A stretch of 53,665 bases of DNA, taken from positions 1-53,665 of the forward strand of contig CAKOSE010000004.1 of NCBI GenBank assembly GCA_934102055.1. The letters are read 5' to 3'. The position numbers were made by a program, and so were the translations under genes. Of this stretch, positions 329 to 40,722 are shown in pieces; the first letter of the stretch is position 1, and each line of letters begins with the position of its first letter. The notes below the pieces were generated by a model. That model was not told where the DNA came from. It saw only the letters and a program-made list of their open reading frames with translations, and ran no database searches. Source of the stretch: an uncultured Bacilli bacterium (lineage in GTDB: Bacteria > Bacillota_I > Bacilli_A > RF39 > UBA660).

Positions 329-1819
329 TTAAGGTATTATTATAAGACGGGTTGAATCATCGGAATAAGTAGTACCATCAAATGGATCAGCAACAGTTTC
401 TCCACCAAAGCTAGGATATGAACTAAAAATACTATCACCTCTAATTGTCCACGGCATACTATCAGCTGGTAATTTCATTTCAGCACCATACCAATCATAT
501 ACATCATCTTTTAAAACTTCTTTTATTCCATCTCCTAATTTACTTCTTATCATAGAGTAATTATCTCCTGTATCATTATAAATATCATAGTATTTTTCAT
601 CTGGTAAAGATGTAAACTGTGATTTACCATATCTGGAATCACCACCATAAGACATAGTTAATTCATGCGCTCCACCAACCATATCATACACTCCATATAT
701 ATTCCCTGTAGTAGACGTTAACATTCCATTTTTTGTATCATAAGCACTACAAATAGAACTGTTATCACTTGCACCACATCCTGCTTTATATTCATATATC
801 ATACCACTAGCAACACTATAAGAGTTAGCCTTTATCTCTGCATATTCATTTTTTTCACACATGCCATATCTAGAATGGGATAGATATGCTACCGCTCCCC
901 ACTCCATGTTTTTTATAACATGTGTATCAATAGATGAATTAAAACCATATTGATTGTTATTATTTTTCATATTTAATATATTTGTAAAGAAAGAACTTAA
1001 TACTTGATTATTTAAAGTAACTATATTTGGTTTATTGTGATGTTATCTATTGTTCCAGTAAGTTCAAATTTTCCTATCAAAAAACCTTTTATTTCTTCAT
1101 CTCCAAATGTAAAGGCTGGATGTGTATATGTTTTATTATTACATGTATCATCTGTACAAGCCTCATTTGTTGCTTTTAATTTACATACTTCAGATGGGTA
1201 TGCAGTTTCATCAGAACCAAGTTGATCTATACATGATAATTCTCCTGTTTTCGATGTCCCACTTTCAAATGTTATCTCTATTGGTTGAGGATCGCTTGTT
1301 TTTGTTCCAGTAGTATTATAATTCCATACTTTATATTTATATCTTGGTATCCAAACCTGCATTGTTAGAATATCATCCATTGGTATTTCTGTTCCAGGAC
1401 TTGCTGATAAATACTTACTTCTATTGGTTGATGATACTGTTACACTATTGGCCCATTTCTTTTCACAATAATCATACCAAGTGTTTCCTTTGTTTGCACT
1501 ATCTGCTTTCTTCCACGTTTCTGTTTCTTCATCATAATATACTGGTATCATTGCATCATCTAGTACTGGTTCATTTGGTTTATTACTACTACAGGTATCT
1601 ACTGTTAATTCTATTGTTTTTGAGCCTATTATTGTATCTGTAAATACTGCATATGTTGTATTTACTTTATAGGATATTAGTCCTACACACATTAAAAATA
1701 TTATACTTAAAGTAGATATAATATAGGGATTAAACTCTTTTATATCTTTATTTAATAGATTGTAGAACCCCCCCCCCCCCAGACGAATATTTGTTCGCTT
1801 TTTTATTACTTTTTTTCAT
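329..1819 (-). pseudogene. Disrupted or phase-OFF paralog of the 676-aa surface protein gene at 32553-34583
   Basis: ATG at 1819 with RBS AAAAGGAGTTAAG. Translation gives MKKSNKKANKYSS, then the 13-G tract, then VLQSIK-stop. The body ORFs 1021-1692 and 329-970 lie in two other frames. Removing one G joins the ATG to GGGGFYNLLNKDIKEFNPYIISTLSIIFLMCVGLISYK. A second -1 shift near 1031-1035 (ACAATAAACC here versus ACTACAAAACC in copy 2) splits off the C-terminal part. Confidence 0.8.
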
Positions 1820-31819: not shown

Positions 31820-31904
31820 ATTTATCACCATATTAATTATATATTATTACTAAATAAAAAGAAAGAGTTTTTCTCTCTTTACTTATAAATTAATATGAGT
31901 CTTG

Positions 31905-32330
31905 TTTATTTTGTTATAATATCTTTATAAACTATTGTTTTAAATATTCCTTCTAAGTATATATTTAAATCATTAGGATTATCTTGAAGTATTGATATAT
32001 TACCTGGCAACCATCATTTTTCATATAATCTAAGAAATATTCATAATGGCTTTTATTATTTTTATTAAAAGCACTTGGATATTCTTCAAAAGGCAATGAT
32101 AACATTTTTTATTTTCACATACCTTTCCAATAATAATGTTGCTAATTTACCAGATAGCATATAAGCATTTGAACCTGTTATATATACTCAACATTTTTCT
32201 TTATATATATAGACTATCAACAGTCTTTTGAAATTTAGGAACTATTTGGAACTTCATCTAAAAAACATAATAATTCTTCTTGAAGTCAATTTTTGTAAAT
32301 ATTTTTCCATAACTACCATGATTTAACATG
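31905..32330 (-). pseudogene. Decayed remnant of an AAA_14/DUF4143 (COG1373-type) ATPase gene
   Basis: Minus-strand translation across at least three frames gives FFLDEVPN, KFQKTVDSLYIKKNVEYI, TGSNAYMLSGKLATLLLERYVKIK, PFEEYPSAF, HYEYFLDYMKNDG and YLEGIFKTIVYKDII. This follows the family pattern (LDE[IV]Q, TGSN..LLS.ELAT.L.GRY.EI, PLSF.E[FY], YL..I..T...KDI). The Walker A N-terminus and the C-terminal half are missing, and several stops and frameshifts interrupt it. Confidence 0.55.
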
Positions 32331-32489
32331 TTTTGGAAATTGTTGTTTTTTATTTTTTTCTTACTATTTTACTAAATATTTTTACTTATCAACAGAATCA
32401 AATTTTAACAAAAGTATTAAACTTTTGTTATGGGAAAACTATTACTGTAACTCATAGTTTTAGATAAAATTATATTTTAATTTACATAG

Positions 32490-32525
32490 AAAAAACCTAT
32501 AAAATTACTTATTCGTAATTTTATA
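32490..32525 (-). terminator. Terminator of the 676-aa surface protein gene
   Basis: 11-bp stem TATAAAATTAC / GTAATTTTATA with a 6-nt loop, followed on the minus strand by GGTTTTTTC. Confidence 0.65.
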
Positions 32526-32552
32526 AGACTGTTTCATAGTTTTGGTAACACC

Positions 32553-34583
32553 TTATGGTGTTATTATGAGGCGAGATGTGTCATCCGAAAAAACATTACC
32601 ATCATTGTTGCCTGAGGAAAACACTAAATTGCCAGTACCAGTATACGCACCACCTCGGCGAAGCCAAGGATAATTGCAATACACCAATGCGCCAAGATTT
32701 CTACCTGAACCATCATACACTTCTTTTATTCCATCTCCTAATTTACTTCTTATTCTAGTATATTTACTTGTACTAAAACTATATTTATCATAATATTTAC
32801 TATTTGGATATGCTATTCCTGCGTATGATGTATAATTACCTGAATCATATATTTTTCCCGTATATCCTGAATTTTGATTTGAATAAGCTCCACTCATCAT
32901 TGTTGTTCCATCGTTACTTACCATATTTCCCATTGTGTATTCAGTTGATCCTGCACTCATATCGTATACTCCATATATATTATGTGTTGTTGAGGCACTT
33001 GGTCCATCTTTTCCTTCCCCTATAGGCGTCTTTGTTACTTTTACTGTCGGACTATCAAAAACCTTTATATTTTTTATATATCCTGTATCTGTTCCTTTTG
33101 CTCCTGAATTATCTTTTCTATATGTAAAAGTTAATACATATTCACCTTTAGCTAATTTTTTTGATACATTTTTGTATGTTAATGCACTTTCTGTCGTTCC
33201 TAAAGTTGTGCCTCCTATTTTTGTACTTGTTCCTGTATCAGATAAAGTTGTTCCATCTTTTGTTATTGTATAGTATAAATAATCATAACTTGCACTTTCA
33301 CTTGACACACTCCAGTCAAATGATAAATATGTTTCATTTGTTGGTGCTGTAAAATTAAACTTCAAATTAGTTGTAGTAGAATTTTTTCCTTGATTAGAAC
33401 TCTTATATAAACCATCTGTTTCAGTCCAAGGATATGTCGTATCATTTGTAACTGTTGGGGAAATATTAGTTCCCCCAGTTATTGTGGTATTAGTTAGATA
33501 TTTTTGATTATATTTATATGTTCCATCTGATGTAAAAGAAGCACTAGAACTTCCTCCACTTCTTCCTGTATAATAGCTAGAACTATTATTTTTATTCACT
33601 TCTTTACATGTACCATCTGTACATGTTCCGTACTTAGAATGTGACAGATATGCGACTGCTCCCCATTCCATATTCTTTATCATATGTGTATCTGTTGTTG
33701 TTGATAGTCCATAGTTATTACCACTATTTTTCATATTCATTATGTTTGTTTCAAATGTACTAACCTTTTGATTTCTTAAACTTTGTACATCTGGTTTTGT
33801 AGTTATATTATCTATTGTTCCAGTAAGTTCGAATTTTCCTATCCAAAACCCTTTTATTTCTTCGCTTCCAAAAGTAAATGCTGGATGAGTATATGTTTTA
33901 TTATTACAAGTACTATCTGTACAAGTAGAATTTGTTTCTTTTAATTTACATGTTTCAGATGGTTTTCCCTCCGTTCCTGATATTGCATCTTGACATGAGA
34001 TTTCTCCATTTGATGCTGTACCATCTTCAAATGTTATTTCTATTTGCTGTTCATTACTACCAACTGTTCCATCACTATTATAATTCCATACTTTATATTT
34101 ATATCTTGGTATCCATACTTGCATAGTAAGTATATCATCCATTGGAATTGTTGTACCGTTTTCTGCAGATAAATATTTTGCTCTGTTGGTGCTTGATACT
34201 GTTACACTATTGGCCCATTTCTTTTCACAATAATCATACCAATTATTGCCTTTGTTTGTAGAATCTGCTTTTTTCCATGTTTCCGAATCTTCATCATAAT
34301 AAACTGGTATCATTGCATCATCTAATACTGGTGCATTTGGTTTATTCATACTACAGGTATCTACTGTTATCTCTATTGTCTTAGTACCCATTATTGTATC
34401 TGTAAATACTGCATATGTTGTGTTTACTTTATAGGAGACAATTCCTACTAAAACTAAGAATATTATACTTAAAGTTGATATAATATAAGGGTTAAACTCT
34501 TTTATATTTCTATTTAAAAAGTTATATAATTGCCCCCCCCCCCCAGACGAATATTTGTTTGGTTCTTGGTCTTTGTTTTTCAT
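32553..34583 (-). CDS. Phase-variable candidate: large Cys-rich surface/secreted protein with an FGE-sulfatase (C-type-lectin-like) fold interrupted by a beta-sandwich insert
   Basis: Intact 676-aa ORF with RBS AAAAGGAGTTAAAACTATG. Domain order: N-tail with the poly-G-encoded GGGG, a TM, the TTYAVFTD motif, a Cys-rich domain, then motifs GFWIGKFELTG, NMEWGAVAYLSHSKYG, IYGVYDMSAGSTEYT and WLRRGGAY. These resemble FGE-sulfatase family signatures. The domain assignment rests on motifs only. Confidence 0.85.
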   Translation of the reverse strand: MKNKDQEPNKYSSGGGGQLYNFLNRNIKEFNPYIISTLSIIFLVLVGIVSYKVNTTYAVFTDTIMGTKTIEITVDTCSMNKPNAPVLDDAMIPVYYDEDSETWKKADSTNKGNNWYDYCEKKWANSVTVSSTNRAKYLSAENGTTIPMDDILTMQVWIPRYKYKVWNYNSDGTVGSNEQQIEITFEDGTASNGEISCQDAISGTEGKPSETCKLKETNSTCTDSTCNNKTYTHPAFTFGSEEIKGFWIGKFELTGTIDNITTKPDVQSLRNQKVSTFETNIMNMKNSGNNYGLSTTTDTHMIKNMEWGAVAYLSHSKYGTCTDGTCKEVNKNNSSSYYTGRSGGSSSASFTSDGTYKYNQKYLTNTTITGGTNISPTVTNDTTYPWTETDGLYKSSNQGKNSTTTNLKFNFTAPTNETYLSFDWSVSSESASYDYLYYTITKDGTTLSDTGTSTKIGGTTLGTTESALTYKNVSKKLAKGEYVLTFTYRKDNSGAKGTDTGYIKNIKVFDSPTVKVTKTPIGEGKDGPSASTTHNIYGVYDMSAGSTEYTMGNMVSNDGTTMMSGAYSNQNSGYTGKIYDSGNYTSYAGIAYPNSKYYDKYSFSTSKYTRIRSKLGDGIKEVYDGSGRNLGALVYCNYPWLRRGGAYTGTGNLVFSSGNNDGNVFSDDTSRLIITP

Positions 34584-34601
34584 AGTTTTAACTCCTTTTT
34601 A
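33800..34601 (-). repeat. Dispersed direct repeat: conserved 5' module shared with 1030-1837
   Basis: See the feature at 1030-1837. Same orientation, about 31 kb apart. Confidence 0.75.
34533..34544 (-). repeat. Homopolymeric tract, 12 x G on the coding strand, encoding Gly4 in frame
   Basis: Counted directly: 8 C at 34533-34540 plus 4 C at 34541-34544. The coding strand reads TCG TCT GGG GGG GGG GGG CAA TTA, translating to SSGGGGQL. Confidence 0.95.
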
Positions 34602-34621: not shown

Positions 34622-34650
34622 ATTCTATAATAAAAATAATACTTTTTCAA
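34622..34650 (-). promoter_or_regulatory. Sigma-A-like promoter (TTGAAA-N17-TAGAAT) of the phase-variable gene, embedded in the upstream gene's terminator hairpin
   Basis: On the minus strand: TTGAAA (34650-34645), a 17-nt spacer, TAGAAT (34627-34622). The hairpin is AATAATACTT-GAAA-AAGTATTATT. This cassette is homologous to 7498-7530. Confidence 0.5.
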
Positions 34651-34665
34651 GTATTATTTTATTTT

Positions 34666-35196
34666 TTACTTATAAATATCTACTCCGTATTTATGTTCTA
34701 CTATATCATAGAATATGTAATTTCTTGGAGGATTTATTGTTAAACTTAAAAGTGTTACATAACCTAGTATTATTAATATTATTGATACTTTGTTTAGTAA
34801 TTTATTTTCTTTTCCATAGTTTAATAGATAATAACTAAATATTTGTTCTAGGATTATTACTATTACTAGAAGAGATATGGATATTATCATGTTTTCTCCG
34901 AACATATCGTAAAGTGGTAAATAAATGATTAAGTAAAGTATTATACTTGTGATCATCATGAGGAAGGTAACTGTAAAGAAATTATTGGTGTTAATATTCT
35001 TTTTTTTATAGATGATGTATTCAATTATATTAAAAGTTAAGATACCACTATAAAGGAGTTTCATGTGTTCCCATATACTTTCGTTAACTGGAAAGAAAAT
35101 TTCGAATATAGGATTTGGAAACCATTCATATAAGAAATGATATAGTACTGTTAAGAGGAATGTTATAATTACTCCGATTATTTTTATTTTTTTCAT
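34666..35196 (-). CDS. Polytopic membrane protein of unknown function
   Basis: Five to six hydrophobic segments and an N-terminal FPVNESIWEHMKLLY motif. The start is set at MKKIKI behind GGTGATAGTG. Confidence 0.65.
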   Translation of the reverse strand: MKKIKIIGVIITFLLTVLYHFLYEWFPNPIFEIFFPVNESIWEHMKLLYSGILTFNIIEYIIYKKKNINTNNFFTVTFLMMITSIILYLIIYLPLYDMFGENMIISISLLVIVIILEQIFSYYLLNYGKENKLLNKVSIILIILGYVTLLSLTINPPRNYIFYDIVEHKYGVDIYK

Positions 35197-35254
35197 CACT
35201 ATCACCATTTTTATTATATGAAAAAAAGTGTTTTTTTATTTTTATTTGTAACAC

Positions 35255-38961: not shown

Positions 38962-40722
38962 TCACATTGCTCTTTTGAATAGTTTTTCTAGTTCATAGAA
39001 ACTATAATTTATAATAGTAGGTCTTCCATGGGGACAAGTATATGGGTTTTCACACTTTAAAAGGGTTTCTAAGAGTTTTTCTGCTTCTTCTAGGGAGATA
39101 TAGTCATTTGCTTTAATGGCCATCTTACAAGAAAGGTTTATGGCAATTTTTTCGTTAAACTTTTCTTTTGAGAAGTCTTTTTCATGGATGATAATTTCGA
39201 TTATTTTTCTTAGGGACTCAGTTATATATCTTTTGTTTATCCATTTTGGATGTTTTCTTATTATTATGACATTTTGTCCAAACTCTTCGTATGATATTCC
39301 TACTCTTTCTATTATAGATTTCTTTTCTTTTAATTCAAGGAATTCTTCGTTTGTAAATTCTAGTTTTATTGGCACAAGTACATCTGTAAATTCCATAGTT
39401 TCTTTGCCTAGTTCTTTTTTATATTTTTCATAGTTTATTCTTTCTTGTGCTGCGTGTTGATCTATTAGATGCATACCATCATCGTTTTCTCCGACTATAT
39501 ATGTGTTTCTAACTATTCCCACGGGAGTTATTTTTTTAACTGTTTTTTTATTTGTTTCTTGTGTGTCTGTTATGTAAGGGATTTCTTCTTCGTTTGCGTT
39601 AAAATCAAAGGTTACCTCTTCGTATATTGGTTTTATTTCTTGTTTTTCTTTAAAGTCTAAGTCTTTGTTTATAGTAGTTATTTTATCAATGTTGGATACT
39701 ACTTTTTCTGATGATTTAATTTCTGGGACAAGGATTAATTTTAGTAAAGCATTATTTATGGTGTGTCTAATTAATTCTAGTAATTCTTCTTGTTTAGAGA
39801 ACTTAATATCCATCTTAGTAGGATGAACGTTTACATCTATTATAGTAGGATCTGATTCTATGTTTAGGACTACAACAGGATATCTTCCGATTGGTAAATA
39901 GGTATGATAAGCTTCTAGGATGGTTTTTATAACAGAGTTATTTCTTATGTATCTACCATTTACAAACATGGTTATAAAGTTTCTAGATGCTCTATTTACT
40001 TCTGGGTAGGAAATGTATCCATTTATGTCGTAATCACTATTAGATGAGTTTATCTTTATCATTTTTTTAGTAACATCAAGACCATATATACTATTTATAA
40101 CTTTTAAAAGATTACCAGATCCATCGGTATTAAGTAGAACTTTTTCATTATTTGTGAGAACAAACTTTATATTAGGATAAGAAAGTGCCATTTTATTTAC
40201 ATATGAGGTTATATTAGCAAGTTCAGTATGAAGGTTTCTTATATATTTAAGTCTTGCTGGGGTGTTATAGAAAATATCTCTTACAGTTATCTTAGTTCCT
40301 GTTCTTAAACTTGATTCACTTGTGCTAGAAATTACTCCGCCATTTATAACTACTAAAGTGCCACATGTTCCATCTGAAGTTTCTATTTGCATCTTAGAAA
40401 CAGAGGCAATAGATGGAAGAGCTTCTCCTCTAAAGCCTAAGGTATCTATATGAAACAAGTCATCATCATTATATAGTTTACTAGTTGCATGTCTTTTTAA
40501 ACAATTAGTGGCATCAATTCTGCTCATACCTATGCCATCATCAGAAACACAAATCTCTCTGGTACCAGCATCTATTAAAGAAATTTTTATACTGGTAGAA
40601 GATGCATCTATACTATTTTCAACAAGTTCTTTAACAACGTTCATTAAAGTTTCCACAACCTCTCCTGCTGCAATCTTATTGGAAAGGTTTATATCCATTA
40701 CTTTTATTTTGTCCATAATCAT
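38962..40722 (-). CDS. mutL: DNA mismatch repair protein MutL
   Basis: GHKL ATPase N-terminus (IAAGEVVE, ELVENSIDA, DDGIGM) and a C-terminal dimerisation/endonuclease domain (DQHAAQERI, CPHGRP). Confidence 0.95.
   Translation of the reverse strand: MIMDKIKVMDINLSNKIAAGEVVETLMNVVKELVENSIDASSTSIKISLIDAGTREICVSDDGIGMSRIDATNCLKRHATSKLYNDDDLFHIDTLGFRGEALPSIASVSKMQIETSDGTCGTLVVINGGVISSTSESSLRTGTKITVRDIFYNTPARLKYIRNLHTELANITSYVNKMALSYPNIKFVLTNNEKVLLNTDGSGNLLKVINSIYGLDVTKKMIKINSSNSDYDINGYISYPEVNRASRNFITMFVNGRYIRNNSVIKTILEAYHTYLPIGRYPVVVLNIESDPTIIDVNVHPTKMDIKFSKQEELLELIRHTINNALLKLILVPEIKSSEKVVSNIDKITTINKDLDFKEKQEIKPIYEEVTFDFNANEEEIPYITDTQETNKKTVKKITPVGIVRNTYIVGENDDGMHLIDQHAAQERINYEKYKKELGKETMEFTDVLVPIKLEFTNEEFLELKEKKSIIERVGISYEEFGQNVIIIRKHPKWINKRYITESLRKIIEIIIHEKDFSKEKFNEKIAINLSCKMAIKANDYISLEEAEKLLETLLKCENPYTCPHGRPTIINYSFYELEKLFKRAM

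Follow-up and report, generated by a model that had tools for sequence, protein, structure and literature searches.

Several described systems stand close to the locus analysed here. The opa genes of Neisseria, about 11 paralogues, carry CTCTT repeats within the region encoding the signal peptide, and among the Mollicutes homopolymers act as switches in the form of coding poly-A tracts (Vaa of Mycoplasma hominis, P78 of M. fermentans) or of a promoter poly-A tract (Vlp of M. hyorhinis). Campylobacter and Helicobacter, which are not known to possess MutSL repair, have poly-G/C contingency genes. Such genes have been described in H. canadensis (PMC2823697) and C. jejuni (PMC6097035), a survey of the Neisseria phasome is available (PMC5953494), and in Bifidobacterium breve a sortase-dependent pilus is switched by replication slippage in a G tract (PMC9187656). 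The present analysis concerns a G12 homopolymer in the 5' coding region of a gene for a predicted surface protein of 676 amino acids (aa), here called copy A, on a stretch of 53,665 nt from an uncultured Bacilli bacterium (contig CAKOSE010000004.1 of assembly GCA_934102055.1; hereafter the window). Comparison of this locus across strains, paralogues and species indicates that the tract very probably mediates phase variation by slipped-strand mispairing, serving as a heritable, reversible translational ON/OFF switch. The window fits the uncultured RF39/RFN20/ML615J-28 group of Bacilli, small-genome and fast-evolving lineages that are discussed in PMC10868615, where phase variation is not mentioned; full-text literature searches found no description of either the lineage or the protein family as phase-variable.

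The parallel with Campylobacter jejuni and Helicobacter (H. canadensis) extends to an AT-rich genome in which numerous loci have a G tract of about 8-13 nt within the 5' part of a coding region, to products that are surface-related (by prediction in the present case), to ON/OFF control by translational frameshift and to tract lengths that differ between strains. Unlike in those epsilonproteobacteria, however, the host here belongs to Gram-positive-type, sporulation-gene-bearing uncultured Bacilli, MutL is present, and one stereotyped leader cassette heads a large paralogous family, whereas the tracts of Campylobacter and Helicobacter are scattered in unrelated genes. With Neisseria opa the locus shares membership of a multi-copy family, here of predicted surface proteins that resemble adhesins, whose genes are individually equipped with a promoter and, in the N-terminal leader region, with a slippery repeat, so that a cell would display a random subset; it differs in having a mononucleotide G run instead of a pentamer, a membrane-anchored, predicted lectin-like ectodomain instead of an outer-membrane beta-barrel, and a host from another phylum. 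The variable surface proteins of the Mollicutes come from a related branch of the Bacilli and likewise form families toggled by homopolymer length, but those are lipoproteins with poly-A tracts, while here the tract is poly-G, a lipobox is missing and the organism is apparently walled (PBP5, PASTA kinase). The pilus switch of B. breve, finally, is also an intragenic G tract of a gut commensal through which slippage turns a colonisation-related surface structure ON or OFF, yet it operates in a high-GC actinobacterium, on pilus genes, at two loci without a family-wide cassette. The mechanism is thus that of a textbook contingency locus, the lineage and the protein family are new for it, and the combination of leader and tract is the one unexplained feature.

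The window has a GC content of 27.7%, and its only G or C runs longer than 5 nt are C12 and C13 on the + strand (Table 1), both of which lie within minus-strand genes and are therefore poly-G on the coding strand. The first belongs to copy A and the second to a paralogue, copy B. Base composition predicts about 5e-6 G/C runs of at least 12 nt per window, and with GGG accounting for 41 of 734 Gly codons (5%), four consecutive GGG codons have a probability of about 7e-6; the copy A tract is far longer than either composition or codon usage would predict. It occupies nt 40-51 of the open reading frame (ORF) and precedes the hydrophobic segment. At G10 or G13 the product of copy A is 19-20 aa long, and at G11 or G14 it is 22-23 aa long. 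Between codons 1 and 65 there is no in-frame ATG, GTG or TTG, and codon 65 lies past the hydrophobic segment, which makes a restart of translation ahead of the transmembrane segment impossible. An earlier sequence-only reading of the window had described a 12-nt poly-G tract that lies 13 codons into the 676-aa ORF, encodes Gly4 ahead of the transmembrane segment, is in frame at 12 G and is matched by no G/C run above 5 nt other than its twin in copy B; each of these particulars was borne out across the 53,665 nt (Gly14-Gly17, hydrophobic residues 33-51), as was the truncation that it foresaw after about 20 residues upon gain or loss of one G (products of 19-23 aa).

Table 1. Positions of the copy A and copy B features within the 53,665-nt window.
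Feature	Position	Strand	Remarks
G12 homopolymer (C12 on + strand), copy A codons 14-17	34533..34544	-	Gly4 (Gly14-17), in frame (ON)
Conserved 15-nt leader AACAAATATTCGTCT, directly 5' of the copy A tract	34545..34559	-	read as NKYSS
Hydrophobic transmembrane/signal-anchor coding region, residues 33-51, downstream of the tract	34431..34487	-	from sequence; AlphaFold2 helix 32-52
Copy A, 676 aa	32553..34583	-	predicted: disordered basic N-tail, transmembrane helix ~32-52, ectodomain ~85-676, CBM/MAM-like beta-sandwich insert ~360-520
Shine-Dalgarno AGGAG, 8 nt 5' of the copy A ATG (34581-34583)	34592..34596	-	from sequence
Promoter-like TTGAAA-17-TAGAAT, 5' of copy A	34622..34650	-	consensus scan only
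Twin tract G13 (C13 on + strand), copy B	1768..1780	-	out of frame (OFF), ATG frame ends after 23 aa
15-nt leader AACAAATATTCGTCT beside the twin tract	1781..1795	-	exact copy
Copy B, paralogue without the beta-sandwich insert	329..1819	-	pseudogene; G13 plus A-run frameshift

The strongest evidence comes from near-identical strains. The orthologous locus, defined by the order relA-dtd-DUF6512 gene-copy A-ffh, was recovered from other metagenomes, in all cases as a short-read consensus assembly (MEGAHIT k141, SPAdes). At 100% DNA identity to the window, L096 has G12 and is ON; L094 (99.4%) has G11 and L095 (99.3%) G10, both OFF; L081 (98.8%), L097 (98.6%) and L085 (87%) all have G9 and are ON; and in L098 (98.3%) the tract is interrupted (TCTTTGGAGGGG), locking the gene ON. 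Further interrupted, locked-ON alleles occur in P0008 and P0009/L007, and the copy A tract is pure in five of six strains. Over the 2,028-nt gene, L097 differs from the window by G9 in place of G12 and by not a single substitution. L094 (G11) and L097 (G9) are identical over 2,162 nt of flanking sequence and have two single-nucleotide polymorphisms (SNPs) in the gene, while L094 and L095 (G10) are one SNP apart there. For comparison, the same 4.7 kb contains 21 A/T runs of at least 6 nt (up to A8), and in six strains not one of them varies in length. Taken together, the differing G lengths of near-identical strains and the constancy of the A/T runs show that no other site of the locus is nearly as mutable as the tract, whose changes include frame-shifting steps. 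The alleles have also left their mark on annotation: within a 90%-identity protein cluster the ON alleles are recorded as 676 aa and 675 aa, whereas the OFF allele of L094/L095 is called from the internal Met65 as a 612-aa protein, a start that it shares with a 599-aa member. As such, the length polymorphism among related loci that would be expected of a contingency locus is present at the copy A orthologues (G9, G10, G11 and G12), in place of the invariance that would have spoken against one.

The same architecture recurs throughout a large protein family. Copy A has thousands of relatives (6,854 scored matches in one search, at least 4,251 representatives at the 50%-identity level in another), none of them with a Pfam domain and nearly all from gut metagenomes; species-representative carriers are metagenome-assembled genomes (MAGs) named uncultured "Bacilli bacterium", "Tenericutes" or "Mycoplasma sp.", and a genome may hold many paralogues (at least nine on one 706-kb contig). 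Across 80 related loci totalling 587 kb, with the gene oriented to the + strand, there are 28 G runs of at least 7 nt and no C run of that length. With the strain loci added, 36 distinct tracts are found (six G9, 14 G10, 11 G11, one G12 and four G13), almost all of them 17-63 nt past a start codon linked to a ribosome-binding site and ahead of the transmembrane segment. An intact ORF follows 31 of these tracts, which are out of frame (OFF) in 23 cases and in frame (ON) in eight, and the OFF copies retain open frames of 500-680 aa. Another paralogue has G8, G10 or G11 in different samples, and pure G9-G13 runs occupy the same codon position in species whose proteins are only about 42% identical. 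Furthermore, 20 of the 30 recognisable N-termini of the family have a tract, two have interrupted remnants and eight have none. The existence of N-termini that lack Gly at the tract position indicates that the glycines are dispensable and that the tract itself is the conserved feature. A role as a poly-Gly linker was considered and rejected, given the rarity of GGG among Gly codons (5%) and the relatives without the glycines.

These observations are best explained by a model in which the nascent or the template strand would slip in the G run during replication and change its length by one or more G. At lengths of 9 or 12, the ATG would be in frame with the transmembrane segment and the ectodomain (ON), whereas at 10, 11 or 13 translation would end after 19-22 residues and no surface protein would be made (OFF), there being no restart codon ahead of the transmembrane segment. 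Such changes would presumably be reversible within a lineage. A cassette of start codon, short tail, 15-nt leader, G9-13 and transmembrane segment heads many paralogues, and unrelated ectodomains as well, in each genome of the lineage; with the same cassette on many genes, each cell would show a stochastic subset of a large surface-protein repertoire. Variable display, in turn, presumably alters adhesion or glycan binding or aids escape from phage or antibody, and a selective benefit would lie in such effects. The contingency-locus interpretation of the sequence-only reading gains strong support from the G9-G12 range among near-identical strains, the constant A/T runs and the conservation of tract position and strand across species and paralogues.

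Several points nevertheless weigh against a reversible switch. The evidence consists of consensus assemblies compared between strains, from which heterogeneity within a population and reversibility are extrapolated, and these assemblies derive from short reads, so that the called length of a long G run may be off by one base. The window, moreover, encodes a full-length MutL homologue (38962-40722; DNA_mis_repair, MutL_C and HATPase domains), with no MutS-sized ORF adjacent. Its presence bears on how fast G tracts can slip: with at least a part of mismatch repair in place, switching might be slower than it is in Campylobacter. The majority of family copies are in the OFF state, and there are pseudogenes among them (copy B, and the gene of the more distant strain L082), so that part of the pattern could reflect decay and not regulation. 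Additionally, the surface exposure and the function of copy A are predictions.

Three alternatives were weighed against DNA-level switching. According to the first, the length of the tract in the DNA matters little: RNA-polymerase slippage or ribosomal frameshifting mixes the frames, and an OFF gene is in fact subject to low, constitutive expression. Homopolymers of at least nine nucleotides are known sites of RNA polymerase slippage, expression of this kind has been reported for poly(A) tracts in insect endosymbionts, and most consensus alleles are G10 or G11, out of frame and yet followed by long intact ORFs. We nonetheless regard this explanation as unlikely: in-frame (G9, G12) and out-of-frame lengths occur at about 1:2, as free drift predicts, with no fixed programmed length; locked-ON interrupted alleles exist; and near the tract the copy A mRNA neither folds significantly (z = 0.31 against shuffled sequence) nor shows a stimulatory element. 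Slippage during expression could, in any case, coexist with DNA-level switching as a leaky OFF state without replacing it. The second alternative holds that the tract is real but of fixed, in-frame length, and that the differences are errors of sequencing or assembly. All loci do come from short-read metagenome assemblies, and long G runs are error-prone on Illumina chemistry. Errors would, however, have to span 4 nt at one locus (G9-G12), including differences of 3 nt, and recur in independent samples (G9 in L081/L085/L097, G11 in L083/L084) while A/T runs never vary; no error of length could produce the alleles that have substitutions inside the tract (L098, L102/L107, L099-L104), and the gene callers of independent projects produced full-length proteins as well as proteins starting at the transmembrane segment. 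Miscalling is accordingly a very unlikely source of the pattern. Highly improbable, finally, is the view that the family is in decay and the tract a mutational hot spot of no selective value, with tracts as relics, frameshifts as steps towards pseudogenes and no selected switch. In its favour are the pseudogenes copy B and L082, both of which have acquired additional lesions, the OFF state of 23 of the 31 copies and the small, fast-evolving genomes of these lineages (PMC10868615). Against it, pure G9-G13 runs sit at the same codon position in species whose proteins share only about 42% identity, and they do so at 27% GC, where such runs would be expected to erode; the OFF copies keep frames of 500-680 aa; and the tract erodes by interruption and shortening in the dead copy B while remaining pure in intact genes, which argues for its maintenance by selection.

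The tract is commonly accompanied by a conserved stretch of DNA. Over 38 cassettes, mean pairwise identity is 0.67 at positions -16 to -1, where the leader (A)AACAAATATTCGTCT of 15-16 nt lies, and 0.36-0.46 in the flanks; the window holds two exact copies, each adjoining one of its two tracts. The leader is a near-palindrome (ACAAAT/ATTCGT), its distance to the ATG is variable, and in some paralogues it is read in a different frame, giving TNIR[HY] and not NKYSS. About eight of the 38 cassettes lack the leader core, and the leader is thus not obligatory. The TAGAAT box of the putative copy A promoter is also found in the 5' regions of paralogues. Furthermore, the cassette heads proteins without detectable similarity to copy A (L051:1811, L068:8768) and others that share the transmembrane region alone (L054:7686, L064:1774). 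A pattern search for leader plus tract gave seven matches among JGI metagenome contigs, including an unrelated GC-rich contig (L092) that was discarded, and none among viral contigs.

Retention of the leader across proteins only about 42% identical, at variable distances from the ATG, in two reading frames and on unrelated ectodomains raises the possibility of a portable, family-wide phase-variation cassette, composed of promoter, ribosome-binding site, short tail, a leader conserved as DNA for a function of its own, G9-13 and a transmembrane anchor. We consider this idea possible, if doubtful. The leader of such a cassette could modulate slippage or provide the binding site of a regulator; it could also be a place of recombination or gene conversion through which tracts are spread or restored among paralogues. 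If the idea is correct, a whole order of uncultured gut bacteria would possess a system devoted to displaying surface proteins in varying combinations.

Two other readings of the leader region were examined and rejected. A part in mRNA structure does not fit copy A, whose 5' region folds no better than shuffled sequence, and a terminator-like match that overlaps the leader on the + strand loses its G-T pairs to A-C mismatches on the coding strand. The copy A locus has no Rfam match. In some paralogues of other species an inverted repeat lies in the 50-70 nt between an SD-like (Shine-Dalgarno-like) sequence and the ATG (L087:6050-6152, as well as L056, L088 and the L045/L047/L048/L051/L064 group). 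The L087 type overlaps a short upstream ORF, and its fold is significantly more stable than that of shuffled sequence (-20.4 kcal/mol, z = -3.4); the fold of the L047 type (AGGTGT...ACACCT) is not significant. In the locked allele shared by L098 and P0008 (SSLEGQ; L098:1201-1260), the 15-nt leader has two substitutions (AAACAAGCATTCGTCT). These changes would fit a relaxed constraint on the leader once the tract is lost, and they represent a single lineage.

Uncultured small-genome bacteria of this kind are common in the human gut microbiota (in the Hadza and in other cohorts), and almost nothing is known of their surfaces. The present results place a probable G-tract switch on much of a family that comprises at least 4,251 clusters at 50% identity and has no Pfam model, and they indicate that such gut commensals probably use combinatorial, stochastic surface display in the manner of mucosal pathogens. 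They also suggest that a Bacilli lineage with sporulation genes and an encoded MutL makes use of this mechanism. On the practical side, genes of this family are systematically truncated or missing in MAG annotation, since OFF alleles are called from internal starts, and concrete loci are now at hand at which metagenomic reads would allow a direct measurement of phase dynamics within hosts.

The sequence-only reading had rightly pointed out the twin tract in copy B, and its account can be made more precise: with 13 G the tract is out of frame, and a second frameshift makes copy B a pseudogene. Relative to copy A, a -1 deletion in the A-run at about 1031-1036 splits the gene into ORFs of 223 aa and 213 aa. 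The split is seen in all ten other samples retrieved, which identifies it as a fixed mutation and copy B as a pseudogene. Its tract has at least eight alleles in 12 strains, L086 included (G13, G12, G11, G5AG5, G6AG4, GAG6, GAG5 and AG6), and in an 11-strain alignment of 2 kb, six of the eight indel columns fall inside the tract, with 19 variable columns in the remainder of the locus. The copy B tract is decaying in other strains by interruption and shortening. A second pseudogenised family member is found in L082, in the same position as copy A (L082:2700-3010; DUF6512 gene upstream, ffh downstream), where G9 is out of frame and an in-frame TAG interrupts the conserved NIKEFN motif.

Structure prediction offers a first view of the protein. 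With an alignment of 13 sequences, AlphaFold2 gave an unusable model of copy A (predicted local distance difference test score, pLDDT, 44); the model used here is based on 111 sequences (pLDDT 91, predicted TM-score, pTM, 0.84). In it, disorder covers residues 1-16 with the Gly run, a helix spans residues 32-52, and the ectodomain has a well-defined fold. The N-tail has five Lys or Arg against three Asp or Glu residues, and its basic character points to an N-in orientation. In Foldseek comparisons, the insert at about 360-520 resembles carbohydrate-binding modules, namely CBM61 (2xom, target TM-score 0.58), CBM16 (2zez, 0.52) and CBM35 (2vzp, 0.49), each at a probability of about 1.0. The longest whole-protein alignment, over 625 columns, is to 5vf4 (E = 3e-4, target TM-score 0.42), the TaqVP variable protein of a diversity-generating retroelement (DGR) with a C-type-lectin/FGE-like fold. 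Sequence searches of the Protein Data Bank with the 13- and the 111-sequence profile returned nothing significant, with the 5vf4 chain ranked top in one and second in the other. Pfam and NCBIfam assigned no family to copy A, copy B or several paralogues; for PF03781 (FGE-sulfatase/C-type-lectin-like), copy A gave no match, and relatives stayed below the cutoff of 23.3 bits (P0306 at 18.3, the L022 protein at 18.5). The comparisons are suggestive of a C-type-lectin/FGE-like core in the modelled ectodomain.

Copy A has no lipoprotein signal with a lipobox, its first Cys being residue 77, past the transmembrane segment, and NCBIfam gave no match to a SipW-type (TasA/camelysin-like) signal peptide. 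A conserved YA[VL]F[TS]D motif follows the transmembrane segment; we take it to resemble the SipW type, a similarity that NCBIfam does not confirm. Copy A would be a type-II anchored surface protein with a predicted ligand- or glycan-binding ectodomain. Larger architectures occur among its relatives, including two giant proteins with 15-16 separate matches each to the family profile (P0173, 4,516 aa; P0174, 3,713 aa) and, in L048, a 993-aa ORF in which the ectodomain occurs twice in tandem. Ten short family contigs of 26-32% GC (L002, L010, L011, L013, L018, L019, L024, L026, L030 and L063) are binned as Bacteroidaceae or Lachnospiraceae ("cleanbin") and are probably mis-binned DNA of the Bacilli lineage.

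The window also encodes YunB, YqfD, an M23/SpoIID-like protein, PBP5 and a PASTA kinase, a gene set that indicates a walled organism of a sporulating lineage; the placement among spore-forming Firmicutes first suggested for this DNA is reasonable in view of the YunB, YqfD and SpoIID-like genes. Over 31832-34583, compared between the window and L081, L094, L095, L097 and L098, diversity among strains is 0.5% in copy A and 0.08% in the 721-nt spacer downstream. The flanking housekeeping genes are far more diverse, with two haplotypes about 7.5% apart in the ffh fragment and 1.5% diversity in the DUF6512 gene, and flank haplotypes and copy A alleles are reshuffled among strains. The pattern suggests either a mosaic produced by recombination or a recent sweep confined to this gene. 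The nearly invariant spacer itself, a 721-nt gap between copy A and ffh (31832-32552), contains no convincing ORF (a 46-aa ORF at 31965-32105 has no Pfam match) and no Rfam match even at E <= 1. On the other side, directly upstream of copy A, lies the DUF6512 membrane-protein gene (34666-35208), as it does in L081, L082, L085 and L094-L098. In L082, where the surrounding gene order is a different one (polA, fpg, DUF6512 gene, copy A, ffh), it keeps its place beside copy A, and the two genes may be functionally linked.

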